IMG/VR virus record: IMGVR_UViG_3300045836_000008
Origin: a virus
Taxonomy: Duplodnaviria > Heunggongvirae > Uroviricota > Caudoviricetes
Strand: one strand, 5' to 3'
DNA length: 64,000 nt
Shown here in pieces: positions 4,040 through 63,783 of this stretch. Every line of letters starts with the position of its first letter. Position 1 is the first letter of the stretch. The notes under the pieces were generated by a model. It had not been told where the DNA came from and did not search any database. It was given only the letters and a program-made list of their open reading frames with translations. A program made the translations under genes and the position numbers.

Positions 4040-4112
4040 GGGTCGGTAGTTTATCTGGCTAAAACGGCGGACTCCAAACCCGCAGTGCAAGGTTCAAGTC
4101 CTTGTCGGCCCG
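4040..4112 (+). tRNA. tRNA, anticodon CCA (tRNA-Trp)
   Basis: Manual cloverleaf: acceptor GGGTCGG/TCGGCCC (two G-U pairs), U8, D-stem GTTT/AAAC with GG in the D-loop, anticodon loop CTCCAAA (U33, CCA, A37), T-arm CAAGG-TTCAAGT-CCTTG, discriminator G, encoded CCA at 4113-4115. One A-C mismatch at 31-39. Confidence 0.6.
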
Positions 4113-4167
4113 CCACATACTTGACCGCCAAGAGCGCGGAACTAAAACCTGAAGAGAAGTAGAGAAG

Positions 4168-28599: not shown

Positions 28600-28818
28600 A
28601 TGAGAGAAGAAGATATGTTGGACCTTCGCGAAGGTCTATGGGTGATCGTTGCACCGGCTGCTGGCCTGTCGCGTCACTCCATCTTCGCGAAGGTCCGTGG
28701 TATTGCGACCAACCCGCTTCCTGTGATCGGACGCAACGTCATCGTTGAACCTGAATTTCCGCTTGGCAAGTTTTCGTGCCACTCGGTGTTTGAACTGCAC
28801 CTGACACCCATCGAATGA
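28600..28818 (+). CDS. small hypothetical protein
   Basis: 72-aa ORF. Confidence 0.45.
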   Translation: MREEDMLDLREGLWVIVAPAAGLSRHSIFAKVRGIATNPLPVIGRNVIVEPEFPLGKFSCHSVFELHLTPIE

Positions 28819-29384
28819 ATTCTGTAGTCTGCTATCCGCCGCTGCGTCGCTGGAAGAAACCCGGCAATGTTGAACTGTCGGTGTTCCTTGCTGGAACTAT
28901 CGAGATGGGAAATTCCCACGACTGGCAGCAAGAGATGATCGACACGATTCAGGATCGGGCGTCCGTCATCTACAACCCGCGTCGCGCCGAATGGGACGCA
29001 TCATGGGTGCAGTCGATTCACGCCGTGCCGTTCAACAACCAAGTCAATTGGGAACTCGATTTCATCGAAGCTGCTGACCGCGTGTACATGTTTCTCGATC
29101 CCGCGTCGAAGTCGGTAATTTCGATGCTCGAATTGGGGTTCCTTGCCGCGTATGCACCTGATAAGCTATGGGTTTGCTGTCCCGATGGTTTCTGGCGCAA
29201 GGGCAACGTCGAAATCGTCTGCAATCGGTACGGCATCAAGCTGTACGAGTCCTTCAATGTGTTCAAGAACGCCGCACGGCTGGACCTTGAACGCGCCTAC
29301 GACAACTTCAAGATCAAAAAGGTGACAGATGAAGAAAGGCGAAGCCCTATCGAAGATGCTGCTGCTTGTCACGACCCGCTTTGA
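28815..29384 (+). CDS. nucleoside 2-deoxyribosyltransferase-like protein
   Basis: N-terminal VFLAGTIEMG (the NDT-family LAG motif) and a conserved acidic residue later. 189 aa. Confidence 0.5.
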   Translation: MNSVVCYPPLRRWKKPGNVELSVFLAGTIEMGNSHDWQQEMIDTIQDRASVIYNPRRAEWDASWVQSIHAVPFNNQVNWELDFIEAADRVYMFLDPASKSVISMLELGFLAAYAPDKLWVCCPDGFWRKGNVEIVCNRYGIKLYESFNVFKNAARLDLERAYDNFKIKKVTDEERRSPIEDAAACHDPL

Positions 29385-29796
29385 CGGCGTTTTCGACAAG
29401 TCCGGGCAACCGTACATCCTGCATCTGTTGAAGGTCATGCACTACTGCAAGACCGACGACGAAGAACTTCAGTGCATCGCACTCGGTCATGACTTCGTTG
29501 AAGACATCTTCCCGAACGACCACTTGGCCGGGTATGCACTGCTGCGCCGCGAAGGCTTCAGCGAACGGGTCATTCAGGGCATCCGCCGCATGACGAAGGT
29601 CGAAGGCGAGACGGAAGAAGCCTACATCGCCAAGGTGTCGGAATCCATCGACTCGATCACCGTCAAACTAGCCGATCTTCGCCATAACAGCGACATCCGC
29701 CGTTTGAAAGGTCTGCGCGAGAAGGACTTCGAGCGCATGCAGAAGTACCATCGGATGTACCTGAAGCTGAAGGAAGCTGAACTTGAATACGCCTAA
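29329..29796 (+). CDS. HD-domain (p)ppGpp-hydrolase-like protein (SpoT/Mesh1-type)
   Basis: HLLKV...ALGHDFVED HD motif and a downstream DLRHN helix. Confidence 0.6.
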   Translation: MKKGEALSKMLLLVTTRFDGVFDKSGQPYILHLLKVMHYCKTDDEELQCIALGHDFVEDIFPNDHLAGYALLRREGFSERVIQGIRRMTKVEGETEEAYIAKVSESIDSITVKLADLRHNSDIRRLKGLREKDFERMQKYHRMYLKLKEAELEYA

Positions 29797-35977: not shown

Positions 35978-36139
35978 ATGAAGAAGAAAAAGAAGAACTT
36001 CAAGAATCACAAGAGCAACAAGATCGTGATCGAGTTCGAAACCACGAAGCCGCGAATTGGTGTGATCTTCACCAAAGTCGTGTCCAACAAAAACTTGAAG
36101 AAGCACAAGATCAAGCACAAGCACAAGGTTGTTGATTGA
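35978..36139 (+). CDS. small extremely Lys-rich basic protein (53 aa)
   Basis: MKKKKKNFKNHKSNKIVIEFETTKPRIGVIFTKVVSNKNLKKHKIKHKHKVVD. Low GC. The alternative-frame Glu/Gln-rich ORF 35917-36135 is the same sequence in another frame. Confidence 0.4.
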   Translation: MKKKKKNFKNHKSNKIVIEFETTKPRIGVIFTKVVSNKNLKKHKIKHKHKVVD

Positions 36140-36507
36140 AACCCCTGATACACGCAAAGATTTCGGTGAAGACCTATGGCGGCAAAGTGGAAGATTATCT
36201 GCCTATTCATAACTTCATTGATAGTAGTAAGTCTGCTCACCCAGACATCCGCCATCGCGCAATTCTGCATTCAGCTTTTGGATGCTTTATCGTTGAGCGC
36301 GTATTCGGGACTTACCTGACCAACAGTGACGGTAAGGATGTGTCCGTTCGCGACATCGCTGAAGAACACATTTTGCAGGACTTGGGATTCATTCCCACGA
36401 TGGAACAGTATTTGAACAACATGACGATTCAGCCGTGGATGTCCGGTACTGAGAAACGCAACAAGAGCGCAACAACGAAGTTCATATCATTAGACGATGC
36501 TGACTAA
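36136..36507 (+). CDS. hypothetical protein (low-GC island)
   Basis: 123-aa ORF, TTG start per the track. Confidence 0.45.
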   Translation: MKPLIHAKISVKTYGGKVEDYLPIHNFIDSSKSAHPDIRHRAILHSAFGCFIVERVFGTYLTNSDGKDVSVRDIAEEHILQDLGFIPTMEQYLNNMTIQPWMSGTEKRNKSATTKFISLDDAD

Positions 36508-37601: not shown

Positions 37602-37628
37602 ACGAAGTAGAACAAGAAGAGAGTGAAG

Positions 37629-38741
37629 ATGAAGCAATATGATGTCGTGGTGTACCGTGGGCGCTTTCAAGGAATGCACGAAGCGCACCTGAAGACTATT
37701 CTGATGGGTCTGCAACTCGCCAAGAAGGTCGTCGTGGTCATCGGTAGTGCGAACGAACCGCGCACCTACTACCGCAACCCGTTCTTCGAGAACGAACGTA
37801 TCGAGATGATCCGTGCGGCACTGGCCGATCACTTCCGGCACGATGACGTGGTATTCACGACCGTCGAAGATCATCCCGACGACAACGTATGGGCTGAAAT
37901 GGTCGCAGAGAACGTGCAAATAATGATCGATGCACTAGACCACGAAGGCGCATTTGGTGACAAGCTGAATCGTCTGCGCATCGGTCAGATTGGCTACAAG
38001 AAGGACGACAATTGCGTTCGTGACGTGGACCTGTTCCCGCAGTGGGAATACATCGATACGCCGCACTTCGAACCGCTCGATGCCACGAAGGTCCGCGAAA
38101 TCTACTTCAGCAAGACGCCGCTGACGTACCTGATGGGTGTGTGCCCCGCACCTGTAATCCGATGGCTGTCCGACTTCCGTGCAACGGAAGCGTTCGACCT
38201 GATGATGCAGGAAAAGGAATACTGCGACAACTACAAGAAGCAGTTCGAACATCTCGAATATGCGCCTACGTTCGTGACTGGTGACAACGTGCCGTTCCAA
38301 GACGACACGATCCTTCTGGTGAAGCGCAAGAACCATCCGGGCAAGGGTCTGTGGGCTTTCGCTGCTGGCTTCTTCAACGCTGCTGACCGTCTGACCAAGA
38401 ACGGCGAACTGGTCAAGGCCGACAAGTCCGTGTTCGACTGCGCCGTTCGTGAACTGTTCGAAGAGACGAACGCGAGTCTCACGAAAGAAGAACTGAAAGA
38501 AGCGTGCATCGCTGAAGGTCTGTTCGACGCAGAAGGTCGCGATCCGCGTGGCCGCATCGTGACGCAAGCATATGTCTACAACTTCGACGGTCGTGAAGTC
38601 TTCTCGGTCGAAGCATCGGACGATGCAGAAGAAGTGCGCCGCTTCCACATCTCGGAAGTGAATCGCCGCATGATGTATGCCGACCACTACAGCATCTTCT
38701 TGCAAGCGCTCGAATCCTATCGCAATTCGAAGTACAACTGA
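37629..38741 (+). CDS. nadM: bifunctional nicotinamide-mononucleotide adenylyltransferase / Nudix hydrolase (NadM-Nudix)
   Basis: N-terminal cytidylyltransferase-fold motif YRGRFQGMHEAH (the HxGH variant) and C-terminal Nudix box (GKGLWAFAAG...AVRELFEETNASL). Confidence 0.8.
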   Translation: MKQYDVVVYRGRFQGMHEAHLKTILMGLQLAKKVVVVIGSANEPRTYYRNPFFENERIEMIRAALADHFRHDDVVFTTVEDHPDDNVWAEMVAENVQIMIDALDHEGAFGDKLNRLRIGQIGYKKDDNCVRDVDLFPQWEYIDTPHFEPLDATKVREIYFSKTPLTYLMGVCPAPVIRWLSDFRATEAFDLMMQEKEYCDNYKKQFEHLEYAPTFVTGDNVPFQDDTILLVKRKNHPGKGLWAFAAGFFNAADRLTKNGELVKADKSVFDCAVRELFEETNASLTKEELKEACIAEGLFDAEGRDPRGRIVTQAYVYNFDGREVFSVEASDDAEEVRRFHISEVNRRMMYADHYSIFLQALESYRNSKYN

Positions 38742-38766
38742 AAACTCTCTACAGGAATCAAACCAC

Positions 38767-40128
38767 ATGCTGCAAACGAAAAACATCCAACTGTCGCAAA
38801 ACTTCGTTCTCGAATCGGATTCGTACAAGTTCAGCCACAACCCGGAAATCTACCCGGAAGGCGCAGAAGCGCTGCACTCGTATCTGTCGGCCCGCGTGAA
38901 GGGTTCGCGCGTGGTGCAGTTCGGCCTTCAGATGTGGATCAAGAAGAAGCTGCTGGCCCCGATCACGCTCGCGATGATCGATGAAGCCGAAGACTTCATC
39001 ACTCGTCACATCGGCCCCGGTGGTTTCGACCGTGGCTTCTGGGAACACATCCTGCACACGTACAACGGCTACATCCCGCTGGTGATCCGTGGTCTGCCGG
39101 AAGGCACTGTGACCGACAGCTACGACACGCTGGTGACGGTTGACTGTTTCGACCCGCGCGTGTTCCCGCTGGCGCAGCACATCGAAGCATCGCTGCAATC
39201 TGACCTGTGGTACAGCACGACCATCGCGACGAACGATCTGGAAAACTACGAAGTCGCGAAGTCGCACTTCGATCTGTTCTCGGACAACCCGGTTCTTCTC
39301 GCGTTCATGCTTCACGACTTCGGCGCACGCGGTGTGACCTGTGAAGAACAACGCCAGATTGGCGGCGCAGCGCACCTGATCTTCTTCCAAGGTTCGGACA
39401 CGATCAGCGGCATCCGTGCGGCAAACCTGTTCTACAACTGCGAGATGGCCGCGTATTCGGTTCGCGCCACGGAACATAGCATCCAGTGCGCCTACGGCCC
39501 CGAAGGGCAAGAAGAGTACATCCGGCGCGTCCTGAAGGCACATGCGAAACCGGGCAACATCGTGTCGCTGGTTCTCGACGGCTACAACGTGTGGCGCGAA
39601 GCCGAACTTCTCTGCACGAAGTTCAAAGACCAAATCATCGAAAGCGGCGCGAAGATCGTCTTCCGTCCCGATTCGGGTGACATGTTCGAAGTGGTTCCGC
39701 GCATTCTCGAAATGCAAGCGCAACACTTCGGCTTCACCGTGAACTCGAAGGGCAAGAAGGTCATCAACAACGTTGGTGTCATCCAAGGTGACGGCATCGA
39801 CAAGATCACGTTCATGCTGCTGATGCAGAAGGTCGTGGCCCTTGGCTATGCCCCTGAATGCGTCGTGATGGGTTCCGGTGGCGGTTTGCTTCAGAAGGTC
39901 AACCGTGACACGCTGAAGTTCGCGCAGAAGGCCGCAGCCATCAAGATCAATGGTGTCTGGGTTGACATGTTCAAAGACCCGATCACCGATCCGGGCAAGA
40001 AGTCGAAGACCGGTCGTCAAGACGATCCGCGCTTCGTCACGTTCTACGACCACGGCGAACTGTTGGTCGATGAATCGCTCGACGTGATCCGGGCACGTGC
40101 GCTCGAAGGCGCAAAAATTCGCAAGTAA
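38767..40128 (+). CDS. nadV: nicotinamide phosphoribosyltransferase (NadV/NAMPT)
   Basis: 454 aa. Family-typical segments (SDSYKFSH, GARGV, QGDGI, VMGSGGGLLQK). Adjacent to nadM as in KVP40-type phages. Confidence 0.85.
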   Translation: MLQTKNIQLSQNFVLESDSYKFSHNPEIYPEGAEALHSYLSARVKGSRVVQFGLQMWIKKKLLAPITLAMIDEAEDFITRHIGPGGFDRGFWEHILHTYNGYIPLVIRGLPEGTVTDSYDTLVTVDCFDPRVFPLAQHIEASLQSDLWYSTTIATNDLENYEVAKSHFDLFSDNPVLLAFMLHDFGARGVTCEEQRQIGGAAHLIFFQGSDTISGIRAANLFYNCEMAAYSVRATEHSIQCAYGPEGQEEYIRRVLKAHAKPGNIVSLVLDGYNVWREAELLCTKFKDQIIESGAKIVFRPDSGDMFEVVPRILEMQAQHFGFTVNSKGKKVINNVGVIQGDGIDKITFMLLMQKVVALGYAPECVVMGSGGGLLQKVNRDTLKFAQKAAAIKINGVWVDMFKDPITDPGKKSKTGRQDDPRFVTFYDHGELLVDESLDVIRARALEGAKIRK

Positions 40129-44657: not shown

Positions 44658-45584
44658 ATGATCGTAATTGGAAGTGAAGCGCTGCGCAAACATGGTATCG
44701 AGACTGGCCGTAAGAAGCTAGACATCGATGTGGTTGGTGAGTACGACGACATTGTTGAATTCGCCAAACAGTTCGGCAACATCCGTGCATGCTACCCGGT
44801 CAGCGATGGCAACAAGCTGGTCGTGAAGACGGACACGATGATCGTTGAAGGCGAAATCACGTGGGAAGGATCGAACGCGGCACAACTGCGTGACCTGATC
44901 CTGAATGATCCGGGCACGGCCATCGAGAAGCGCCCGAACGGCTACGTGATCCCTTCAGTGAATCTGCTGTACATGCTGAAGATGTCGCATCGGTATCTGC
45001 GCAACAGCCCGCACTTCCTGAAGACGATGCGTGACATTCAGATGCTTCGCCTATTCGGCGCAAAGATCGAAGAACGTCACGAAGAGTTCTACAAGGAACG
45101 CATGCGCGTCACCTACGATTACGGTCATCCGAAGCTGGACCAGTCGAAGAAAGATTTCTTCAGCGATGACGGTATCAAGTACGTCTACGATCACGACTCG
45201 ATCCACGAAGCAGTGAAGCAACTGGACCGACCGGCCTACACGTACTACAAGCCGGATCAAAGCGAAGTGAACTGTTCGAAGGACATGTTCTTCGCTGCAC
45301 CGGAGATGGTTCGCCTTCTCGGTGGTCTGGAAGAGTCCTACGTGCTGGCGCTGGAACGGTCGCAGATTCCGTTCCCCGGCAAGTGGACGCCGCAGCGTTC
45401 GTTCGACTTCGCACTGATGAAGGTCTGCACGTCGATCACTAGCGGATGGTTCCGCGAATACTGTTGGGAAAACTATGACAAGATTCGCGAACTGTACGAC
45501 GACAGCTACGTTGATCGGTTCTGGCAGAAGGTTCAAGAAGGTGTGGTGATTCACCACGATCCACAACAACGAGTATATGGCTAA
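44658..45584 (+). CDS. hypothetical protein (308 aa)
   Basis: Long ORF with coding composition. No motif recognised. Confidence 0.55.
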   Translation: MIVIGSEALRKHGIETGRKKLDIDVVGEYDDIVEFAKQFGNIRACYPVSDGNKLVVKTDTMIVEGEITWEGSNAAQLRDLILNDPGTAIEKRPNGYVIPSVNLLYMLKMSHRYLRNSPHFLKTMRDIQMLRLFGAKIEERHEEFYKERMRVTYDYGHPKLDQSKKDFFSDDGIKYVYDHDSIHEAVKQLDRPAYTYYKPDQSEVNCSKDMFFAAPEMVRLLGGLEESYVLALERSQIPFPGKWTPQRSFDFALMKVCTSITSGWFREYCWENYDKIRELYDDSYVDRFWQKVQEGVVIHHDPQQRVYG

Positions 45585-53764: not shown

Positions 53765-54277
53765 ATGTCTTATACCCTGTCACAAGCGGGCGCACAAATG
53801 ATTGGTCAGTTTGAAGGTCTTCGGCTGACAGCGTATTACGATCAAGTAGGCGTCCTAACAATCGGCTACGGCACGACGAATGCGGTACTTCCGCCGTCGA
53901 TGCAATTCGGCCCCGGCACTACCATCACGCAAGCGCAAGCGGTGCAATACCTGCAATACGCAGTGAACACGAAGTTCGCACCCGCCGTGAACAATCTGGT
54001 CAAAGTGCCGATCACTCAAAACGAATTCGATTCGCTAGTCTCTTTCGCCTACAACTTGGGTGCAGGGTCGCTGGCGAGTTCTACATTGCTGCGTCTTTTG
54101 AATGCGGGCCAGTATGGCGCTGCGCAGAAGCAGTTCCTTGTCTGGAACAAAGCCGGTGGTGTAGCAGTGCGCGGACTCACGAACCGCCGTCTTGGTGAAG
54201 CTGCAAACTTTGGCCCGCTTTCGCGTTCGGCCCTAATCGCACAATGCTTGAACGGCGTTGATCCCGCAAACCCATAA
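53765..54277 (+). CDS. e: phage lysozyme (GH24, T4 e-type endolysin)
   Basis: N-terminal catalytic motif EGLRLTAYYDQVGVLTIGYG and a downstream conserved Thr/Asn region. Confidence 0.85.
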   Translation: MSYTLSQAGAQMIGQFEGLRLTAYYDQVGVLTIGYGTTNAVLPPSMQFGPGTTITQAQAVQYLQYAVNTKFAPAVNNLVKVPITQNEFDSLVSFAYNLGAGSLASSTLLRLLNAGQYGAAQKQFLVWNKAGGVAVRGLTNRRLGEAANFGPLSRSALIAQCLNGVDPANP

Positions 54278-54289
54278 TCACAACAATCC

Positions 54290-55573
54290 ATGAGTACGAA
54301 AAACTTTTGGCAAATGCGTTCGCAGCTTGATGCCCTGAAGCTGGTCACTGAAGGTCTGACTTCGGTGGACAAGGGCGATCATCTGGAAATCACGCCAGAC
54401 CACATGAAGAAGCCGATGTACAAGGGCACGGCCATCGAGCATCGCGGCAACCCGGAACACTACGGCCCGGACGGTCATGCAGCGCTCGATAAGCACGTCT
54501 CCGAAGTCGTGAAGAACCCCGAGAAGAACACGGCGTTCAAGTCGGCTGACAGCTACACCAAGCAGCACCTTGGCACTGGCTACGAGTTCCATGACGAGAA
54601 GCCGAAGTCATCGCTGCGCAAGCAGTACGTGATCGGCAAGACGTATGACCTAGCAACCCAGAATCATCCCGACTACAAGAAGGCGGTGTTCGACGGCTAC
54701 GCAAAGCATCGTCCCGACATCGTGAAGCAGACCAAGGCAACGGACTACGATTCGCTGGTGCAAGGATCGTACAAGCACGTCGCCAAGGAAACGAACAAAC
54801 AGTTCGAACACCTACCGGTCAAGACGCAGTTCCATGATGGTCACATGGGCTATCACAACAGCGGCGAGATGATGCGCGACATCCACGGTCACAACAACCT
54901 GACTGTGTATCGTGGTGGCGACAAACACGAATTCCTGCATCATACCGACAAGACTGGCCTGAACGAGAACGAGAAGTTCCGTGCAGTTCATGACTACTAC
55001 GGTCACGCGATCCACGGCAACCAGTTCGGCCCGAAGGGCGAAGAAGTTGCATGGCACTCGCACAAGAAGATGTTCTCGCACGGCGCATCGGTCGCAATGA
55101 CGGCAGAAACGCGCGGTCAGAACAGCTACGTGAACTACACGCATGCGAACCTATCAACGCAGAAAGAGATGGAAGGCCATCGTGCATCGAAGCGTGCTGC
55201 ATTGAACGCGGGCGATCACGCTGGTGCGGCGCAAGCTGACGCACATCTGCGTGAAGCTGGTGGCAAGTGGAACTACGCGAAGCAAGCATCGGTAGCACTG
55301 CCACACGAAATGCTTCACCCGCACTTCGACGGTCACGCACCGGACAGCATCAAGCATCTACTGCATGATCCGGCTGCGAAGGCATCTGGCGGCGTCTATG
55401 ACGTTCACAAGGACCATCTGGGACTTGCGGACCTTGCCCGTCACCACAACACGTCATCGCACACCCACATGGGCGGCGGCGTGCTTGACCGTGACAACGC
55501 ACACGCGGACCTGAAGCACATCGCGGCAGTCCACGGCTACACCAAACTTTCACACAACCCGTTCAAGGGCTGA
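54290..55573 (+). CDS. His-rich hypothetical protein (427 aa)
   Basis: Numerous HxxH/HH clusters (HDGHMGYHNSGEMMRDIHGHNN, HAIHGNQFG, HEMLHPHFDGH). Compositionally similar to 46959-47852. Confidence 0.55.
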   Translation: MSTKNFWQMRSQLDALKLVTEGLTSVDKGDHLEITPDHMKKPMYKGTAIEHRGNPEHYGPDGHAALDKHVSEVVKNPEKNTAFKSADSYTKQHLGTGYEFHDEKPKSSLRKQYVIGKTYDLATQNHPDYKKAVFDGYAKHRPDIVKQTKATDYDSLVQGSYKHVAKETNKQFEHLPVKTQFHDGHMGYHNSGEMMRDIHGHNNLTVYRGGDKHEFLHHTDKTGLNENEKFRAVHDYYGHAIHGNQFGPKGEEVAWHSHKKMFSHGASVAMTAETRGQNSYVNYTHANLSTQKEMEGHRASKRAALNAGDHAGAAQADAHLREAGGKWNYAKQASVALPHEMLHPHFDGHAPDSIKHLLHDPAAKASGGVYDVHKDHLGLADLARHHNTSSHTHMGGGVLDRDNAHADLKHIAAVHGYTKLSHNPFKG

Positions 55574-55575
55574 TC

Positions 55576-55613
55576 TTGACAACGCTGGCCGTCTGTGATA
55601 CTTTCAGACGGCC
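55576..55613 (+). promoter_or_regulatory. TTGACA followed by a 9-bp hairpin (GGCCGUCUG-UGAUACUUU-CAGACGGCC) whose loop carries a weak -10-like TGATACT
   Basis: Same architecture as 40142 and 42163, with a weaker -10. Confidence 0.4.
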
Positions 55614-55659
55614 TTAACCTTAACTTACATCATGATCGATATTGAAAGGAAACCCAAAC

Positions 55660-55836
55660 ATGGCAAACAGCACCAACGTTACCCCAAAGGCGAAAGCGGT
55701 CCTTGACGACATCCTTGAAGACATCAAGGCGTCGGACGAACCGACTGAATCGCATCTTCCACAAGAAATTTTCGACCTTGACAAAGCAACACTGTTGGCA
55801 GTTATCTACCGATTGGTTGCACGTGTGCGTGATTGA
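55660..55836 (+). CDS. small hypothetical acidic protein (58 aa)
   Basis: ATG in frame with track ORF 55642. Confidence 0.4.
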   Translation: MANSTNVTPKAKAVLDDILEDIKASDEPTESHLPQEIFDLDKATLLAVIYRLVARVRD

Positions 55837-55865
55837 TGTTATAATCACGTCTGTCGATCCGGGAA

Positions 55866-55893
55866 AGGGGGCTTCGGCCCCCTTTTCTTTTTC
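55866..55893 (+). terminator. rho-independent terminator with UUCG tetraloop (AAGGGGGC-UUCG-GCCCCCUU + UUCUUUUU)
   Basis: Perfect 8-bp stem. Preceded by a second small hairpin (GUGAUU...AAUCAC). Confidence 0.85.
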
Positions 55894-55926
55894 CCAAGCT
55901 TGTAAAATCAATAAGGACCGATTACA

Positions 55927-56424
55927 ATGAAGACCATCCTTGCAGCAATCCTGATCGCACTGTCAATCCAGACCGCGATTCCCATGACTCACCCGCCTAC
56001 GCAGCTTCAGGCAAACGTCCAGCACGACATCAACTGTCTGGCCGAGAACGTCTACTACGAAGCACGTGGCGAACCCGAAGACGGCCAGATTGCCGTCGCT
56101 GACGTGACCCTGAACCGGACTGAAGCGAACGGCTTCCCGAAGACGGTGTGCGGTGTGGTGCATGAGAAGCGGGAACACAAGTGTCAATTCTCGTGGGTGT
56201 GCTGGCTGAAGCGCCCGCCCATCGACAAGAATTCCCAACAGTGGGAGAAGGCACAAAGTATTGCCACGACAGTGTTGCTTTTTCGTTCAGGAAAGGATAT
56301 AATGCAGAAACAGTCAGCGTTGTTCTACCACGCTGACTACGTTCACCCGGTATGGGCGAAGAAGATGAAGCTTGTCAAGAAGATCGGCAAGCATGTGTTC
56401 TACACGAAGACGACCAAAGCATGA
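55927..56424 (+). CDS. SleB/CwlJ-family cell-wall hydrolase with N-terminal signal/anchor
   Basis: NVYYEARGEP...GQIAVADVTLNR family signature. N-terminal hydrophobic ILAAILIALSIQTAIPM. Confidence 0.7.
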   Translation: MKTILAAILIALSIQTAIPMTHPPTQLQANVQHDINCLAENVYYEARGEPEDGQIAVADVTLNRTEANGFPKTVCGVVHEKREHKCQFSWVCWLKRPPIDKNSQQWEKAQSIATTVLLFRSGKDIMQKQSALFYHADYVHPVWAKKMKLVKKIGKHVFYTKTTKA

Positions 56425-57077
56425 TTTTCCAAAGTGAGATGTATGTCCGTGGTGCATTCGCGAGCGAGTACCCGGACAGCGCAGTGAAAAATGAACCGAT
56501 GTTCTTCAACTGCGACCTAGAGTATGCGTACAAGAACGGCCACGACATCACCCGCCACTTCCTTGACGGTCTTCCCGAAGACTGGAAGCTGGATGATGTC
56601 GTGTTGGACAGCCGAGTTCACATGCTGATGCCGGGTTGGTATCCGTGCATTCCCGGCTGGCATCATGACGATGTGCCGCGCAGCACGCCGTCCGGCCAAC
56701 CGAACTACGAGAACCCCGAATACCATTCGGAACACCTGTGTGGACTGGTGAACGCGCATCTCGCGCCGACCATGTTTGCCATTGGTGAATTCTTCATGTC
56801 GGAACCGGACATCAACAAGACGATCTACAAGGTCTGGAATGATGAAGTCGAACATAAGGTATGGAAAGCTTCCAACGACATATCTGTTGTTTCGGCCCGA
56901 TCCGGCGAGTACATCCAATTCGATGCACACACGTTCCACACCGGGACCAAAGCTGTTGGTAACGGCTGGCGCTGGTTCATCCGTCTGTCTCGCAACACCA
57001 ACCGCGTGAAGTTCATCACCAACGAAGTCCGTCACCAAGTTCAGGTGTACATGGACGACCCAACCCAAGGCTGGTAA
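56421..57077 (+). CDS. 2OG-Fe(II)-oxygenase-like protein
   Basis: HxD...H candidate iron ligands (WHHDDVP, FDAHTFHTG) in a beta-rich context. Moderate confidence. Confidence 0.45.
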   Translation: MIFQSEMYVRGAFASEYPDSAVKNEPMFFNCDLEYAYKNGHDITRHFLDGLPEDWKLDDVVLDSRVHMLMPGWYPCIPGWHHDDVPRSTPSGQPNYENPEYHSEHLCGLVNAHLAPTMFAIGEFFMSEPDINKTIYKVWNDEVEHKVWKASNDISVVSARSGEYIQFDAHTFHTGTKAVGNGWRWFIRLSRNTNRVKFITNEVRHQVQVYMDDPTQGW

Positions 57078-57401
57078 ATGACGTACAAGACCCAAGAAGA
57101 GATTGTCAACGAACTCGTTGCAGCCCTGACGGACGACGACAAATCGGCACTGAAGACGTACTACAAGTCCGAAGACGAACTCGGAATCTTGCATCACGGC
57201 TACGGCACGCACATCCGCAATACGTACAAGCTGTGGGAAGCGGCGAACCCGCTGACCCATGACTGGTTCAAGGACTGTGCGTTCGCAGAGAACGGGCAGC
57301 ACGAACACATGATTGATGGTGTCGATCATCACCCGCAACATCCCGATCAGGTGTCGTTTGAAATCATCAAGGCCGTCTGGCGCAGGGCTGTCGATGTCTG
57401 A
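57078..57401 (+). CDS. hypothetical protein
   Basis: 107-aa ORF. Confidence 0.5.
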   Translation: MTYKTQEEIVNELVAALTDDDKSALKTYYKSEDELGILHHGYGTHIRNTYKLWEAANPLTHDWFKDCAFAENGQHEHMIDGVDHHPQHPDQVSFEIIKAVWRRAVDV

Positions 57402-57618
57402 CGAGAAGTGGCACGATGCCGGTTCACTGCCGAACGGGCATCATCTGTTCTACAAAGAAAACGAAGTCGGTGGTCGCACCTACTGCACGGACGAGTGTGG
57501 TTGTGGCGTCATCATCTGGGACACCGCAATCACCGACTATCACACCCTGTTGGCCGCAATTGTTCATGAAGAGCATTTGCGCATCAAAGAGTTTTACGAG
57601 AAGAAGTATGCAAGCTGA
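57394..57618 (+). CDS. small hypothetical Cys/His-containing protein (74 aa)
   Basis: ATG in frame with track ORF 57313. Contains CTDECGCG. Confidence 0.4.
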   Translation: MSDEKWHDAGSLPNGHHLFYKENEVGGRTYCTDECGCGVIIWDTAITDYHTLLAAIVHEEHLRIKEFYEKKYAS

Positions 57619-57883
57619 AGTCCACGCAGTACCCGCAACAGACGAATTCATCATCACCAAGGAATTCGCTTCGGCCAACGAATTTTCGATGTTCATCGAA
57701 GAGACGGCCATCAAAGAAGGCATGGACCTGATTGATGTCATCCTGAACTACTGTGAAGAGAAAGACATCGACGTGGACGTGACCGCAAAACTCGTCACCA
57801 AATCCCTGAAGGAAAAGCTTGCCATCGAGTTCCAGCAACGCAAGATGCTGCGATCAGAGACGGGCACGCTCGAAGACCTGTGA
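57608..57883 (+). CDS. small hypothetical acidic protein (91 aa)
   Basis: ATG in frame with track ORF 57416. Confidence 0.4.
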   Translation: MQAEVHAVPATDEFIITKEFASANEFSMFIEETAIKEGMDLIDVILNYCEEKDIDVDVTAKLVTKSLKEKLAIEFQQRKMLRSETGTLEDL

Positions 57884-58007
57884 GTTGGAACAACGTTCTT
57901 CCGTGGTGGATATGGTGTCACCTTGCATGGGAACGCGCGGCGCTCGGATCATGCGCCTTCAATGACGAGTTCCATCTAAGCGAATTCCGATCCGACTACT
58001 TCCCCTG

Positions 58008-58505
58008 ATGTACACGCTGAAACAATACATTGTAGAGAAACAAGAAGGCAAAAGTGGTACATACGCTGCGATGAACTTTGCGCCGATTTCGGCGTATCAA
58101 ATCGCGAAGTACGTGTCCGAACATCGGATACCTTCACCCGTTCCGCCCGAGAAGCTTCACGTGACGCTGATGTACTCGCGTCGCACGCTGGTCGGATATA
58201 CGGCGCAAGGCGAAATCAAGCCTATGCCGGTTCGCGTGATCGGGTTCGATGTCTGGGATACCCATGACGGCAAGAAGGCGCTGGTGGCCCGTTTAGACGC
58301 CCCAGAACTCGAAGCACGTCACCGGTATCTGATGGACACGTACAACGGGACGTATGACTTCCCCGAATACAAACCCCACTTCACGATGTCATATGACGTT
58401 GGACCGGGTTGGGCTGCATCCAAGATGCCCTTGTTCGAACATCCGCTGTACCTGAACCATGAGTACAGCAAACCCCTTGACCTTGAATGGACCCCTGACA
58501 AGTGA
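58008..58505 (+). CDS. 2H-phosphoesterase-superfamily protein (LigT / 2'-5' RNA ligase / cyclic phosphodiesterase-like)
   Basis: Two H-x-T/S-x motifs (HVTLMYS and HFTMSY) spaced about 85 aa apart. 165 aa. Confidence 0.7.
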   Translation: MYTLKQYIVEKQEGKSGTYAAMNFAPISAYQIAKYVSEHRIPSPVPPEKLHVTLMYSRRTLVGYTAQGEIKPMPVRVIGFDVWDTHDGKKALVARLDAPELEARHRYLMDTYNGTYDFPEYKPHFTMSYDVGPGWAASKMPLFEHPLYLNHEYSKPLDLEWTPDK

Positions 58506-58954
58506 CATTCCTTGATTATTTGCTCGGTCGCAACAAGCAACCCGAAAAGCCAAAGGCGCTGGTCTACGAACTGGCCGACCTGAAGGCAACGTCCGTCGAA
58601 CGTGCAGCCGCACGACAGGCGAAGATGGAAGAACAGCAACGCCAGTGGTCCGAAGATCAGCGCAAGCGCGGTCAAGAAGCCGCTGTCGAACAGTTCGCGC
58701 AGTATCGTGCCCGGATTCTCAAACAGGCCGAGTACGATGACGATCTGAAGCAGTACGAAATCAACATCGCCTTTCACGAACACTCGAAAGAACTGGACGA
58801 CTACACCGAAGCGTTGGCCGATCTGCTGCGTGACCTGTTCATTCTCGAAGGCGTGAATGCCGAACTGGTGTGGGAAGAACACCCCATCGGTGAAGGTAGC
58901 TACTACGCATCCGACCGTATCCGTTATTCCGCAAAGCTGGTGGTGTCATGGTAA
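58502..58954 (+). CDS. hypothetical coiled-coil protein
   Basis: 150-aa ORF. Confidence 0.5.
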   Translation: MTFLDYLLGRNKQPEKPKALVYELADLKATSVERAAARQAKMEEQQRQWSEDQRKRGQEAAVEQFAQYRARILKQAEYDDDLKQYEINIAFHEHSKELDDYTEALADLLRDLFILEGVNAELVWEEHPIGEGSYYASDRIRYSAKLVVSW

Positions 58955-59349
58955 GTGCAATGAAGCTGATCGACCGTATCCGCATCGCAGAAGAGACGCT
59001 TGAAGCCCGTCTCGAAGAAGTGCAACGCCAGATTGCAGAAGCCCACAAGAAGCTTGATGATGAAGATCGCAAGCGTGGCAAGCAAGACGGCTACAACACC
59101 ATCTCGGTGATCGATGCGAAGATTCTGGCCGCTGTCGATGACAAACAAACGACCTACCTACACCCGGTTGGCCGTGGCCGCGCAACCAGTACCTTGTCGC
59201 CGTATGAAGAAGGTCTGTCGAACTACCTGATCGAACACTTCCGTTGGGAAGGTCTTCAGGTGACGCTCGAAAAGATGCCGCTGTACCAAGGCAAGCAGAC
59301 CGTACAGGCATACGATTTCATCCTGAAATTTTCGTGGCAACACGTGTAG
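58948..59349 (+). CDS. hypothetical protein
   Basis: 133-aa ORF. Confidence 0.5.
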   Translation: MVSAMKLIDRIRIAEETLEARLEEVQRQIAEAHKKLDDEDRKRGKQDGYNTISVIDAKILAAVDDKQTTYLHPVGRGRATSTLSPYEEGLSNYLIEHFRWEGLQVTLEKMPLYQGKQTVQAYDFILKFSWQHV

Positions 59350-59621
59350 TTAATGTCGCCAAGACCAAGAACTACGATGTCTACATTGGTCGTGGCGGCA
59401 AGTGGGGAAACCCGTTCATCATCGGTCGTGATGGCACTCGCGAAGAAGTGATTGCCAAGCACGCCGAATGGATCGAACACGGCGAAGGACGATACCTTCT
59501 CGATTCGATCCATGAACTGTACGGCAAGACTCTCGGTTGCCACTGCGCACCGAAACCCTGTCACGGCTGCACTCTTGCACGTCTGGCAGTCAAGTATCAC
59601 ATTCCTTCGTTCTTCTCATGA
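59334..59621 (+). CDS. DUF4326-family protein
   Basis: YDVYIGRGGKWGNPF...GKTLGCHCAPKPCHG signature. Start uncertain (GTG at 59334, or upstream ATG at 59244 overlapping the previous gene). Confidence 0.55.
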   Translation: MATRVVNVAKTKNYDVYIGRGGKWGNPFIIGRDGTREEVIAKHAEWIEHGEGRYLLDSIHELYGKTLGCHCAPKPCHGCTLARLAVKYHIPSFFS

Positions 59622-60211
59622 CACCCATCCAAGTCTGCAAAGCTTATCTCGCGCTGAAGCAACACTTCACGTCAGACCGGTACGATGTTTTCAAGTATCG
59701 CGGACGATGGAGCCTGTCCCGCGAAGCGTTCGACAAGCGCAAAGACAAGGGTAGGTGCGAGAAGATCGCGCGGACGATGACCGACGAAGAGATTGTCCAA
59801 ATGTTCGTCGCGAACTTCACGCGCAAGGCCGACTATTCCGGCCTGTTTGACGACCAAACAGAGACGCGCTATCGGGAATGGTTGGGCTACAATCAAGCAC
59901 TCTCGTACAACTTTGGGAATGAAGTGAAATCACTTCTGACCGTTGCACAAGAAGACGGAATATGCTATAATGACGTTTTCTTCAGTAGTGAATGTCAACA
60001 CCCACCTGTCCTGATGGCGTACATGGGGAAGCAAATCTCCATCGAGACGTTCCTGATTCTGGACCGCCTAAATAGGTTTACAGAGAAGTTGGTTAGTGAT
60101 GTGGTAACAGAGAACATCCTGCGTACCGCACGCAAGTACGATCCTTTCCTAAAGGTCGATCTGGAAACCTATGACAACATCACCCGACGAGTCAGAGAGC
60201 AAGTCTTCTGA
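59618..60211 (+). CDS. hypothetical protein
   Basis: ATG overlapping the upstream stop (ATGA). In frame with track ORF 59537. Confidence 0.5.
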   Translation: MTPIQVCKAYLALKQHFTSDRYDVFKYRGRWSLSREAFDKRKDKGRCEKIARTMTDEEIVQMFVANFTRKADYSGLFDDQTETRYREWLGYNQALSYNFGNEVKSLLTVAQEDGICYNDVFFSSECQHPPVLMAYMGKQISIETFLILDRLNRFTEKLVSDVVTENILRTARKYDPFLKVDLETYDNITRRVREQVF

Positions 60212-60380
60212 CGAGACAATCAAGGCGTTGCAGCAAGATGTGATGTACTTGCAGCGCGAGAACGATCAGCTATGGGCGAAGATTGAAGAGATTGAAGGCA
60301 ACTATACTTCGCTCTTCGAACGAATCCGTTCTTGGCCGTTCATCAAGATAAACGTTCCAGCATTAAGCAGTAATGGGTAA
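60171..60380 (+). CDS. small hypothetical coiled-coil protein
   Basis: 69-aa ORF. Confidence 0.4.
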   Translation: MTTSPDESESKSSDETIKALQQDVMYLQRENDQLWAKIEEIEGNYTSLFERIRSWPFIKINVPALSSNG

Positions 60381-60636
60381 GACACGGCACTACCGACCCG
60401 AAGAACGCAGCATCCATCGGGTCAAACCGGTCGCAGAAAAGGCGACTAAATATAAGCATGACATCTTCAAAGTTGAAGACGATGAAGACGATGAAGATGA
60501 CGACCCTGACTATCTGGATTACCCGGACGATCAGGACTGAAGTACCAACCGTGAGAACTTGCTATATGAAATCCACCAAACACGTCGAATATAAGTCGAT
60601 ACAACCAAAATACGCTGAAATAGGTAGAAACTCAAA

Positions 60637-61644
60637 ATGGCAAAAAGCATCTCGGAACTCCGCAAGGCACGTGGCAACTTTGAATCGCTGACGAAAGAAA
60701 TCGAAAAGCAGAACAAGAAGGGCTACGACAAAGAAGATGATCGTTTCTGGCAATGTGCAGTTGACAAAGCCGGTAACGGTAGCGCGGTGATCCGCTTCCT
60801 GCCCGCACCGCAAGGCGAAGACATTCCTTGGGTGAAGATGTACACGCACGGCTTCAAAGGCCCAACCGGCAAGTGGTACATCGAAAACAGCCGCACCACG
60901 ATTGGCGAAGCTGATCCGGTGACGGAACTGAACAACGAACTCTGGTCTTCGAAGGTTAAGGAAAACGAAGACATCGCACGCGCCCAAAAGCGCAAGCTGA
61001 ACTACTACAGCAACGTTCTGATTATCTCGGACCCGGCGAACCCGGAAAACGAAGGTAAGGTGAAACTCTTCCGCTACGGCGCGAAGATTTTCGAAAAGCT
61101 GAACGCCGCGATGGAACCGGAATTCGAAGACGATCCGCGTTTCAACCCGTTCGACTTCTGGGAAGGTGCAAACTTCCGCCTGAAGATCACGCGTGTTGAT
61201 AAGTACGCAAACTTCGACAAGTCGTCGCTCGCAGCACAGACGCCCGTCAGCGATGACGACGCAGAACTGCAAAAGATTTGGGACCAGTGCGCAAGCCTGA
61301 AGGCAATCATCGCCCCGGACCAATTCAAGAGCTACGAAGAACTTCAGAAGCGCTTGAACTTCGTGCTGGCAACATCGGCACCGGGCAAGAACGCTGAACA
61401 GTCCGAAGTGTCGGAAGAAGATCAAGAATTCATCCGCCAACAGTCGAATCGCACCGCCGACCGCCTGAAGGGCGCATCGAAGGCGAAAGACGCACCGAAT
61501 GCTGAACAGTTCGATGACGTTCCGCCGTTCGACGTAGACGAGAAGCCCACTGCCGCGAAGGCATCGGCCAAGTCCACGGCAAAGCAGGTTGAGTCCGAAG
61601 AAGACGACGACCTTGACTACTTCCGCAAGCTTGCTGGCGAATAA
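60637..61644 (+). CDS. 32: single-stranded DNA-binding protein (T4 gp32-like)
   Basis: Collinear similarity to T4 gp32 (DKAGNGSAVIRFLP, HGFKGPTGKWYIE, NVLIISDPANPENEGKVKLFRYGAKIFEKLNA, WEGANFRLKI, acidic C-terminal tail). Confidence 0.9.
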   Translation: MAKSISELRKARGNFESLTKEIEKQNKKGYDKEDDRFWQCAVDKAGNGSAVIRFLPAPQGEDIPWVKMYTHGFKGPTGKWYIENSRTTIGEADPVTELNNELWSSKVKENEDIARAQKRKLNYYSNVLIISDPANPENEGKVKLFRYGAKIFEKLNAAMEPEFEDDPRFNPFDFWEGANFRLKITRVDKYANFDKSSLAAQTPVSDDDAELQKIWDQCASLKAIIAPDQFKSYEELQKRLNFVLATSAPGKNAEQSEVSEEDQEFIRQQSNRTADRLKGASKAKDAPNAEQFDDVPPFDVDEKPTAAKASAKSTAKQVESEEDDDLDYFRKLAGE

Positions 61645-61736
61645 TCTGTATAACAGATAAACGCCGAATATCCGTGTAGCAGATACAGTCCACAAGCTGT
61701 ATCTGACGGATACAGACTACAAGCTGTAGAAACACA

Positions 61737-61765
61737 AAAGCCCGCTTTCGCGGGCTTTTTCTTTT
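61737..61765. terminator. bidirectional rho-independent terminator (AAAGCCCGC-UUUC-GCGGGCUUU flanked by A- and U-tracts) between convergent genes
   Basis: Perfect 9-bp stem. U-tract on + strand, A-tract upstream. Confidence 0.8.
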
Positions 61766-61770
61766 GGTGA

Positions 61771-63783
61771 TTAGAACATCACCGTGTTCATCATCTGTCG
61801 ATCAAAGTACGATTCGCGACTACGCGGTTCGGCCTTCACTGGAACGATTGCTGGCTTGTCTGAAGCTGCTGGCGCTGCATGGTTCTGCTGCACGACCACG
61901 GTAGGCTTGCTTGTCTGCGCTGAATGCTGCGCGACTTGATGCACTTCCTTGGTCTTGTCGCTGGCGGGTTTCGCCCACCATGAACCAATCTCGTCACCGA
62001 TCCATTCACCGGCACGTGCGCCAAGCATAGAACCGGCTGCACCGCCCGCGAGAGTACCGACACCCGGTGCAACGAACGAACCCGCGATACCGCCGAGTGC
62101 GCCGCCCGCATATCCGCCGATCACCGAACCCAGACCGCCGCCAACTGCATGTGCCTTCTGTTCCTTCGCTTGCTGCGCCGTGATCTTACCGGCCTTCAGC
62201 TTCGCGTCTGCATCGGCATAGTCTTCGTATGACGTGTACGCCGTGATGGCCGTGCCCGCGATACCCGCAACCTTGCCAAGCTTTGCTGCACCCTTCAGAA
62301 GCTTCGAACCGGCACGTGCTTCACCGGCCAAACCCTTCCCGCCTTCTTCAAGCAGACCTTCCTTCGGACCCTTGGCTTTGACGCCTTCTTCTTCGACTGC
62401 GCCTTTGGTCTTCTCTTCTGTCGCACCTTTCTCTTTGGCGTTTTCCTTCGGACCCTTCTCGCGAGTCAAGAACTCGGTTGCCGCCGTGAGTGCTGCACCG
62501 GCCAGACTTCCGCCAATACCCGACCCTGAATCCTTGTCGTCACCATCGTCAATCTGCTTGGTTGCATCGGCGCTGCGCGGATCGATGTCGTTCGATACCA
62601 GTGCGTCATCGGGCTTAATCGCCCCTACAACGCCTTCTGACGGCTTGAATGATGGGTAGGCATCGACTGCACCTGCAACGGCTGATGCAAGCGGTGTAAG
62701 GCCCGTTTTCAGCTTTGCATGCGGGTTGCGTTGCTTGACCTGAATCGGGTCCGGTGATTCCTTGAACTCGACATCTTCTGCTTCATGCTTCGGACCCGCA
62801 AGACGGAACGGTAGCTGATTCTCTTGCTGCTTGGCACGATGGTCTTCCAGCATCGGTGTCGGATTGTGCGGCAACGCCGGAACCAGTTCTGCGTGTGCGC
62901 CGCCCGACGACGGACCCGGCAACATTGGCGAACCGACTGCGATAGCTGATCGACCTGTCGCATTACCCGGCAACGTAGGCGGCATGTAGCGCGGTGATTT
63001 CTGACCATCTTCGTCAGCTTTCCTAACCATCTTGACGATCAGGTTTTCGACGTGAAGGTTTTCGACCTTCGATGGGAATCCGCCACTGCCGCCAGAACCC
63101 TTCACACCGCCCGCGATTTCCGAAGCCATCGCGTTCGCCTTATCCTTCACGTCTTCACCAGTGATCTTCTCACCGGCCTGACGGATCAGCTTTTCTGCCG
63201 TGCCTTCGTTCTGAAGTTCATGTAGCGGATTCAGACCGCCCGGACCCTTCTTGTCCAGACCCGCAGCCCAACGGAACAGCGGGCTTTCAAGATCGTCCTT
63301 GGTCGGCTTGAAGTAGTTCTTTGCTCGATGATTCAGTTCACCCTTCAGCGCACCGGCCAGACCCTTCGGCTTCGCCTTGCTGATGTCGGTGTGCTTCATG
63401 CCGAGTGCAGCAACCCTTTCGAGTTCGCCCTTGGCCGGATGGTCGCCATCGATTTCGTTCAGTCGTACAACTGCCGCCTTGAATTCCTTGTGCAGCGATT
63501 CAAGATCGTCTTTGTCGGCACGACGAAGCTTGTAGAAGTTCTCAGTGACACCACGGAACACTTCCTTCTGTTCGTCCGTGGCCTTCTTCATCCATTCTTC
63601 CTGATCCTTCACGGACTCAGTGAATTGACGATACGCTTCATCGATCTGCTTGATGAAGGCATCGTCCTTGCCGCCATTCTTCGAAACTTGGTTGCGGCGA
63701 AGCAAGTTCCCGATCTTCCCGATATATGCGTTCATATCCGCATTCGAGATTCCTGCTGTTTGTGTTGGTTGCATCGCCGCCAT
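61771..63783 (-). CDS. large minus-strand protein (670 aa): Lys/Glu-rich helical N-terminal region plus C-terminal glycine-zipper hydrophobic domain
   Basis: C-terminal GGGLGSVIGGYAGGALGGIAGSFVAPGVGTLAGGAAGSMLGARAGEWIGDEIGSWW (GxxxG repeats). First minus-strand gene of the window. Confidence 0.65.
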   Translation of the reverse strand: MAAMQPTQTAGISNADMNAYIGKIGNLLRRNQVSKNGGKDDAFIKQIDEAYRQFTESVKDQEEWMKKATDEQKEVFRGVTENFYKLRRADKDDLESLHKEFKAAVVRLNEIDGDHPAKGELERVAALGMKHTDISKAKPKGLAGALKGELNHRAKNYFKPTKDDLESPLFRWAAGLDKKGPGGLNPLHELQNEGTAEKLIRQAGEKITGEDVKDKANAMASEIAGGVKGSGGSGGFPSKVENLHVENLIVKMVRKADEDGQKSPRYMPPTLPGNATGRSAIAVGSPMLPGPSSGGAHAELVPALPHNPTPMLEDHRAKQQENQLPFRLAGPKHEAEDVEFKESPDPIQVKQRNPHAKLKTGLTPLASAVAGAVDAYPSFKPSEGVVGAIKPDDALVSNDIDPRSADATKQIDDGDDKDSGSGIGGSLAGAALTAATEFLTREKGPKENAKEKGATEEKTKGAVEEEGVKAKGPKEGLLEEGGKGLAGEARAGSKLLKGAAKLGKVAGIAGTAITAYTSYEDYADADAKLKAGKITAQQAKEQKAHAVGGGLGSVIGGYAGGALGGIAGSFVAPGVGTLAGGAAGSMLGARAGEWIGDEIGSWWAKPASDKTKEVHQVAQHSAQTSKPTVVVQQNHAAPAASDKPAIVPVKAEPRSRESYFDRQMMNTVMF

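Follow-up and report, generated by a model that had tools for sequence, protein, structure and literature searches.

A divergent member of the Acb1 family of 2H phosphodiesterases encoded by an uncultured T4-like phage

Introduction

Small enzymes of the 2H superfamily are carried by many phages, and their records name them in different ways. Does the 165-aa 2H protein encoded between gp33 and gp59 of an uncultured T4-like phage act on the ends of RNA molecules, or on a nucleotide signal that the host uses for its immunity? The DNA analyzed here is a stretch of 64,000 nucleotides (the window) from the 172,555-bp Logan contig SRR35486024_271928. An initial annotation, made from the letters of the window, had described the protein as LigT-like and had proposed either that it degrades cyclic-oligonucleotide immune signals or that it takes part in tRNA repair. 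Here we assign the gene to a family, compare its active site and predicted fold with those of characterized enzymes, and examine its surroundings.

Results

The ORF and its assignment to a family

The exact coordinates of the ORF, which runs from ATG to TGA, were confirmed (Table 1), and match statistics far beyond chance confirm, as far as sequence can tell, that the gene is real. The homologues share an N-terminal motif conserved from residue 1 onward, which speaks for this start codon, and the minus-strand ORFs that overlap the gene (for example, 58319..58882) are taken as spurious because the plus frame is the conserved one. The TGA shares bases with the GTG that starts the next gene (GTGA, 58502-58505), and the two genes are therefore probably translationally coupled.

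Table 1. Coordinates of acb1, its functional sites and other features of the window
Feature	Coordinates	Strand	Basis or remark
acb1 coding sequence	58008..58505	+	ORF, Pfam PF23474, PDB 7T26, fold match 7T26/7T27
Codon of Y19 (T4 Acb1 base-stacking Y12)	58062..58064	+	alignments; role from PMC9117128
First catalytic motif, H51-V-T53-L (HVTL, residues 51-54; T4 Acb1 H44/T46)	58158..58169	+	sequence, alignments
Second catalytic motif, H124-F-T126-M (HFTM, residues 124-127; T4 Acb1 H113/T115)	58377..58388	+	sequence, alignments
Codon of K155 (position of T4 Acb1 E141, adenine N6 contact)	58470..58472	+	ungapped alignment E152 to W161
C-terminal lid segment including W161 (T4 W147)	58479..58502	+	alignments; lid role from PMC9117128
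Gene of 150-aa protein	58502..58954	+	overlaps acb1 stop
Gene of 133-aa protein	58948..59349	+	overlaps end of 150-aa gene
Nmnat (CTP_transf_like) and NUDIX protein	37623..38741	+	domain matches
Nampt (NAMPT_N and NAPRTase)	38677..40128	+	domain matches; adjoins Nmnat-NUDIX gene
tRNA-Trp (CCA)	4040..4115	+	
Nucleoside 2-deoxyribosyltransferase-like protein	28815..29384	+	PF15891, 100 bits
Small HD-domain protein	29329..29796	+	
SPFH/Band 7 protein, 362 aa	31469..32557	+	
DUF6915 protein	36136..36507	+	145 bits
DUF7275 and DUF7277 protein	44658..45584	+	237 bits
Phage_lysozyme	53765..54277	+	
Hydrolase_2 (SleB-like)	55927..56424	+	N-terminal hydrophobic segment
DUF4326 protein	59334..59621	+	PHROG 464

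The protein matches PF23474 (Anti-CBASS protein Acb1) with 120.1 bits against a cut-off of 27 (E 8e-35), and the match spans residues 17-163 and profile positions 2-143 of 144, which is essentially the whole profile. Its best sequence match among solved structures in the PDB is Acb1 of Erwinia phage FBB1 (7T26/7T27), found over the full length with an E of 3.8e-23, and the second is a phosphodiesterase of Burkholderia phage BCSR5 (9Q2G/9Q2Y; E 4.5e-8). A tblastn search returned 1475 matching phage records, mostly Straboviridae, with Ralstonia phage RsoM2USA as the best cultured match (44%) and T4 gene 57B at 34% identity (E 4e-19). Experiments have identified the product of 57B as Acb1 (Hobbs et al. 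2022, PMC9117128). The gene is a divergent member of the described Acb1 family of 2H phosphodiesterases and not a LigT gene; the initial annotation had overlooked this family, which is founded on T4's own 57B. The divergence is considerable: the nearest characterized enzymes are just 34-35% identical to the protein, just two of the 1445 cluster representatives that match at E<=1e-3 reach E<=1e-30, and the subclade of this acb1 is thinly sampled (12 proteins in a word-indexed search).

Could the protein nevertheless be an RNA 2',3'-cyclic phosphodiesterase or 2'-5' RNA ligase of the LigT/ThpR type, which would serve the healing of RNA or tRNA ends and not immune evasion? Such enzymes belong to the same 2H superfamily, and database names point their way: PHROG 755, to which the protein matches with an E of 1.7e-41, is labeled "RNA ligase," and many phage records read "RNA ligase" or "RNA 2',3'-cyclic phosphodiesterase." Moreover, the Acb1 reaction itself, which proceeds without metal ions, runs via a 2',3'-cyclic phosphate (PMC9117128). 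However, the "RNA ligase" label attaches to the very family of T4 57B, which is experimentally Acb1, and the protein scores below the cut-offs of both relevant Pfam families, with 21.6 bits against 27 for PF13563 (2_5_RNA_ligase2) and 13 bits against 23.3 for PF02834 (LigT_PEase). No NCBIfam model matches it at E<=0.01.

Predicted structure

An AlphaFold2 model of the protein, built from 13 sequences, reached a mean pLDDT of 87.7 and a pTM of 0.79. Residues 161-165 have a mean pLDDT of 54, as expected because the lid is flexible. The top Foldseek matches in the PDB were the two FBB1 Acb1 entries, 7T27 (E 9e-13) and 7T26 (E 2.5e-12), with target-normalised TM scores of 0.82-0.86 and an rmsd of 2.4 A for 7T26. 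Like the Acb1 enzymes of T4 and FBB1, the protein is a single 2H domain in the size range of about 150-165 aa; ahead of the first strand it has 7 more residues than T4 Acb1, so that Y19 takes the place of Y12.

Next in the ranking came 9Q2Y and then 9Q2G, both of the BCSR5 phosphodiesterase. This enzyme, "2H PDE-9," belongs to the structural group of T4 Acb1, has the same length of 165 aa, and carries its catalytic histidines at positions 50 and 123, compared with 51 and 124 here. It differs in its sequence (the fold alignment gives about 24-25% identity) and in having an N-terminal lid, whereas the protein described here retains the Trp that belongs to the C-terminal Acb1 lid.

LigT, Usb1, plant cyclic phosphodiesterase, penguinpox cGAMP phosphodiesterase and AKAP18 appeared only at E values of at least 7e-5 and TM scores of about 0.5. 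E. coli LigT (5LDI) has two HxT motifs like the query, but its match is weak compared with that of Acb1 (E 7e-5, TM about 0.5, 13-17% identity). The penguinpox enzyme (9BKQ) is likewise a viral 2H enzyme directed against a cGAS-type signal and is a distant fold match (E 3.7e-4, query TM 0.52, 13% identity); it is larger and has an N-terminal lid. The comparison with LigT on one side and anti-CBASS enzymes on the other, which the initial annotation had suggested as a check, thus favors Acb1. "LigT-like" holds at the level of the superfamily and fails as a family name. We rejected membership in LigT/ThpR on the scores below the Pfam cut-offs, the lack of an NCBIfam match and the fold, which is nearer to Acb1, and we regard a function in RNA end healing as extremely improbable.

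Functional residues and the lysine at position 155

The residue numbering used in the main text of PMC9117128 agrees with the sequence of T4 Acb1, which allowed each functional position to be located here. The catalytic residues H44, T46, H113 and T115 of T4 correspond to H51, T53, H124 and T126, and the base-stacking residues Y12, W74, F107 and W147, the last of which also belongs to the lid, correspond to Y19, W83, F118 and W161 (PMC9117128). We followed these positions in an alignment of 163 sequences, composed of 149 cluster representatives at 50% identity, 12 close homologues, T4 57B and the query. Histidine occupies the H51 column in all 163 sequences and the H124 column in 162; the T53 column has Thr in 162 of 163 and Thr or Ser throughout, and Thr or Ser is found in 162/163 at T126. 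The stacking positions are aromatic in nearly all sequences (Tyr or Phe in 162 of the 163 at Y19). W161 is invariant in two other homologue alignments and is Trp in 104/163 sequences of the large one. Both H-x-[TS]-x motifs of the initial annotation are present, and neither is lost on alignment. By these alignments, nothing of the Acb1 catalytic tetrad is lost in the protein, and all four aromatics that stack the bases are kept, as is the lid Trp at the C-terminus. Family membership, fold and conservation of the active site are demonstrated by the present analysis.

One functional residue differs. The position of T4 E141, which contacts the N6 of adenine (PMC9117128), is occupied by K155, and neither the HMMER nor the MAFFT alignment has a gap between E152, which is invariant, and W161. 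Glutamate prevails in this column (124 of 163 sequences), followed by Lys (11), Ser (8), Gln (7) and Asn (6); the lysines include 8 separate cluster representatives at 50% identity. Lys155 is, by its distribution in the alignment, a recurring minority state that bears on specificity and not on membership in the Acb1 family. The contact of E141 with adenine N6 was used to explain why the substrate needs at least one adenosine (PMC9117128). Lysine replaces this adenine-reading glutamate, and therefore the substrates and base preference of T4 Acb1 are not simply transferable; the base preference may differ from that of the T4 enzyme.

Genome context

Megablast of positions 56000-61700 against the phage collection gave no match, and there is therefore no close cultured relative to compare. 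The G+C content is about 53%, and gp32 and gp41 are closest to proteins of cyanomyoviruses (46% and 51-56% identity, respectively). Upstream of acb1, the genes for PhoH, lysozyme, a 427-aa protein, Hydrolase_2, PHROG 1843, DUF6794, a 74-aa protein and gp33 follow one another in the 5'-to-3' direction; downstream come the genes of two uncharacterized proteins of 150 and 133 aa, DUF4326, gp59, two small ORFs and gp32. The gene thus lies between gp33 and gp59, unlike in T4 and most of its cultured relatives, where acb1 comes after the 57A tail-fiber chaperone gene. The order gp33-Acb1-...-gp59-gp32 recurs in related T4-like contigs of 168-177 kb, which are likewise uncultured.

Signals for expression were sought around the gene. 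The 124-nt gap 5' of acb1 has no unusual RNA structure (z = +1.0), Rfam families have no match in 55000-62000, neither a sigma-70-like promoter nor an intrinsic terminator was found beside acb1, and the T4 late-promoter motif TATAAATA is absent across the whole window.

The initial annotation had offered tRNA repair, together with the encoded tRNA, as a role for the gene, and nothing nearby suggests repair. RNA-ligase or kinase-phosphatase families were absent among the scanned subset of window proteins, and the tRNA-Trp gene, the only tRNA gene of the window, lies 54 kb from acb1. Its statement that the phage carries NARP2 is, on the other hand, consistent with the sequence. An Nmnat-NUDIX gene and an adjoining Nampt gene have the composition of NARP2 (bioRxiv 10.1101/2024.02.11.579819), the NAD+ reconstitution pathway known from Vibrio phage KVP40, and from its domains the pair fits NARP2, a counter-defense module. 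In 20 further ORFs around these genes, no known counter-defense domain was found.

Other genes of the window are recorded in Table 1. The DUF4326 gene sits between the two uncharacterized paralogues and gp59, and its product has a counterpart with 59% identity in L005, one of the related contigs. The gene of the nucleoside 2-deoxyribosyltransferase-like protein adjoins that of the small HD-domain protein, and together they may serve nucleotide modification or salvage. Cell-wall hydrolases are represented twice within 2.5 kb, by the different genes of the Phage_lysozyme and Hydrolase_2 proteins. The matches to DUF6915 and to DUF7275 with DUF7277, domains defined only recently, are strong.

Two paralogous genes downstream of acb1

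The proteins of 150 and 133 aa encoded directly after acb1 are paralogues (30% identity, E 9e-7), each combining a long helix at the N-terminus with a small alpha/beta domain at the C-terminus that ends in Trp, and neither has a match in Pfam, PHROG or NCBIfam. The model of the 150-aa protein (pLDDT 84.2) has a helix of 59 residues and, after it, a beta-alpha-beta-beta domain. No PDB entry matches it significantly (best E 0.22), and its best match in BFVD is a weak one to an uncharacterized protein of Sinorhizobium phage phiM7 (E 1.7e-3, TM 0.41-0.48). Homologues come after Acb1 in related T4-like contigs, two of which, of 176,940 and 167,847 bp, were inspected directly. A profile search returned just 16 proteins; where a large contig is recorded for them, its length equals that of one of the contigs with Acb1, and their occurrence is confined to the syntenic T4-like clade. 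On a jumbo-sized contig with a more distant Acb1 (P0012), no homologue was called beside that gene, and two unrelated-looking 95-aa genes come after it instead. The association between the paralogues and Acb1 may be the shared ancestry of one phage lineage.

Discussion

What would an Acb1 do for this phage? By analogy with the enzymes of T4 and FBB1, from which we infer catalysis, substrate range and the effect on CBASS, the protein is very probably a phosphodiesterase that cleaves the cyclic di- and trinucleotide signals of the host and so blocks CBASS. The enzyme would bind the cyclic di- and trinucleotides that CD-NTases of the host produce as second messengers and hold them in a U-shaped beta-sheet pocket, with the bases stacked on Y19, W83, F118 and W161 and the flexible C-terminal lid shut over the ligand. 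The tetrad H51/T53/H124/T126 would then provide metal-independent acid-base catalysis, in which the ribose 2'-OH attacks the 3'-5' bond to give a 2',3'-cyclic phosphate intermediate, and hydrolysis of this intermediate would yield a linear product with a 3'-phosphate. Presumably, once the signal is removed, the CBASS effector stays inactive and the phage escapes abortive infection. The main idea of the initial annotation, a 2H nuclease against cyclic-oligonucleotide immune signals, with CBASS named first, was right in that this is the most likely role by homology.

Enzymes of the Acb1 group are broad in range, and which substrates they prefer is determined by their core and not by the lid (bioRxiv 10.1101/2025.08.21.671373). 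Other signals, such as cA4 or cA6 of type III CRISPR systems, gcADPR of Thoeris or products resembling 2'-5' oligoadenylate, come into question as the molecules degraded. A broad panel of compounds revealed some activity of the Acb1 group on molecules related to type III CRISPR (bioRxiv 10.1101/2025.08.21.671373). However, T4 Acb1 neither accommodates nor cleaves cA4 (PMC9117128), activity on gcADPR is not reported for the family in the Acb1 papers cited, and the residues that form the pocket here are those of Acb1. We consider such targets very unlikely, and with them two of the substrates listed in the initial annotation, cA4 and gcADPR, lose their appeal.

The range within the CBASS signals deserves separate thought. 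Even where the active site is the same, viral 2H phosphodiesterases have markedly different substrate ranges, and some groups are inactive on a panel of 18 compounds (bioRxiv 10.1101/2025.08.21.671373). Breadth is also a possible liability, as the Panoptes system is triggered when 2'3'-c-di-AMP is degraded; the enzyme of BCSR5 for the most part leaves this molecule alone (bioRxiv 10.1101/2025.08.21.671373). It is conceivable, if rather unlikely, that the protein combines the Acb1 fold with shifted substrates, such that K155 would turn recognition from adenosine-containing signals to cyclic nucleotides containing guanine or uracil; the enzyme may also spare 2'3'-c-di-AMP and so avoid decoy systems of the Panoptes type. 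In line with such a shift, the lysine sits where E141 of T4 reads adenine and recurs across separate clusters, and both the control of preference by the core and the behavior of the BCSR5 enzyme agree with it. However, one residue is the whole basis of this reading, the remaining pocket positions are conserved, and the effect of a lysine on base choice is a matter of chemical reasoning. A bolder version, in which Lys155 marks a specificity-switched subclade that attacks cGG or c-di-UMP or spares 2'3'-c-di-AMP and in which the coupled paralogues form a new accessory or counter-defense family, seems to us distinctly unlikely. An Acb1 that acts on CBASS signals in the manner of T4 and FBB1 is the reading that we prefer.

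The assignment leaves the present understanding of Acb1 unchanged, since the family was already known. With it, a gene listed in many phage records as "RNA ligase" or "hypothetical protein" can be annotated with confidence. It also extends Acb1 to a lineage of uncultured T4-like phages that has replication proteins nearest to those of cyanomyoviruses and whose acb1 gene occupies a position other than 57A-57B. A phage with Acb1 and a NARP2-like NAD+ salvage pair would possess two counter-defense modules, one against signaling and one against NAD+-depleting defenses. In addition, the replacement of glutamate by lysine at the adenine-reading residue may offer a small handle on how Acb1 enzymes set their base specificity.
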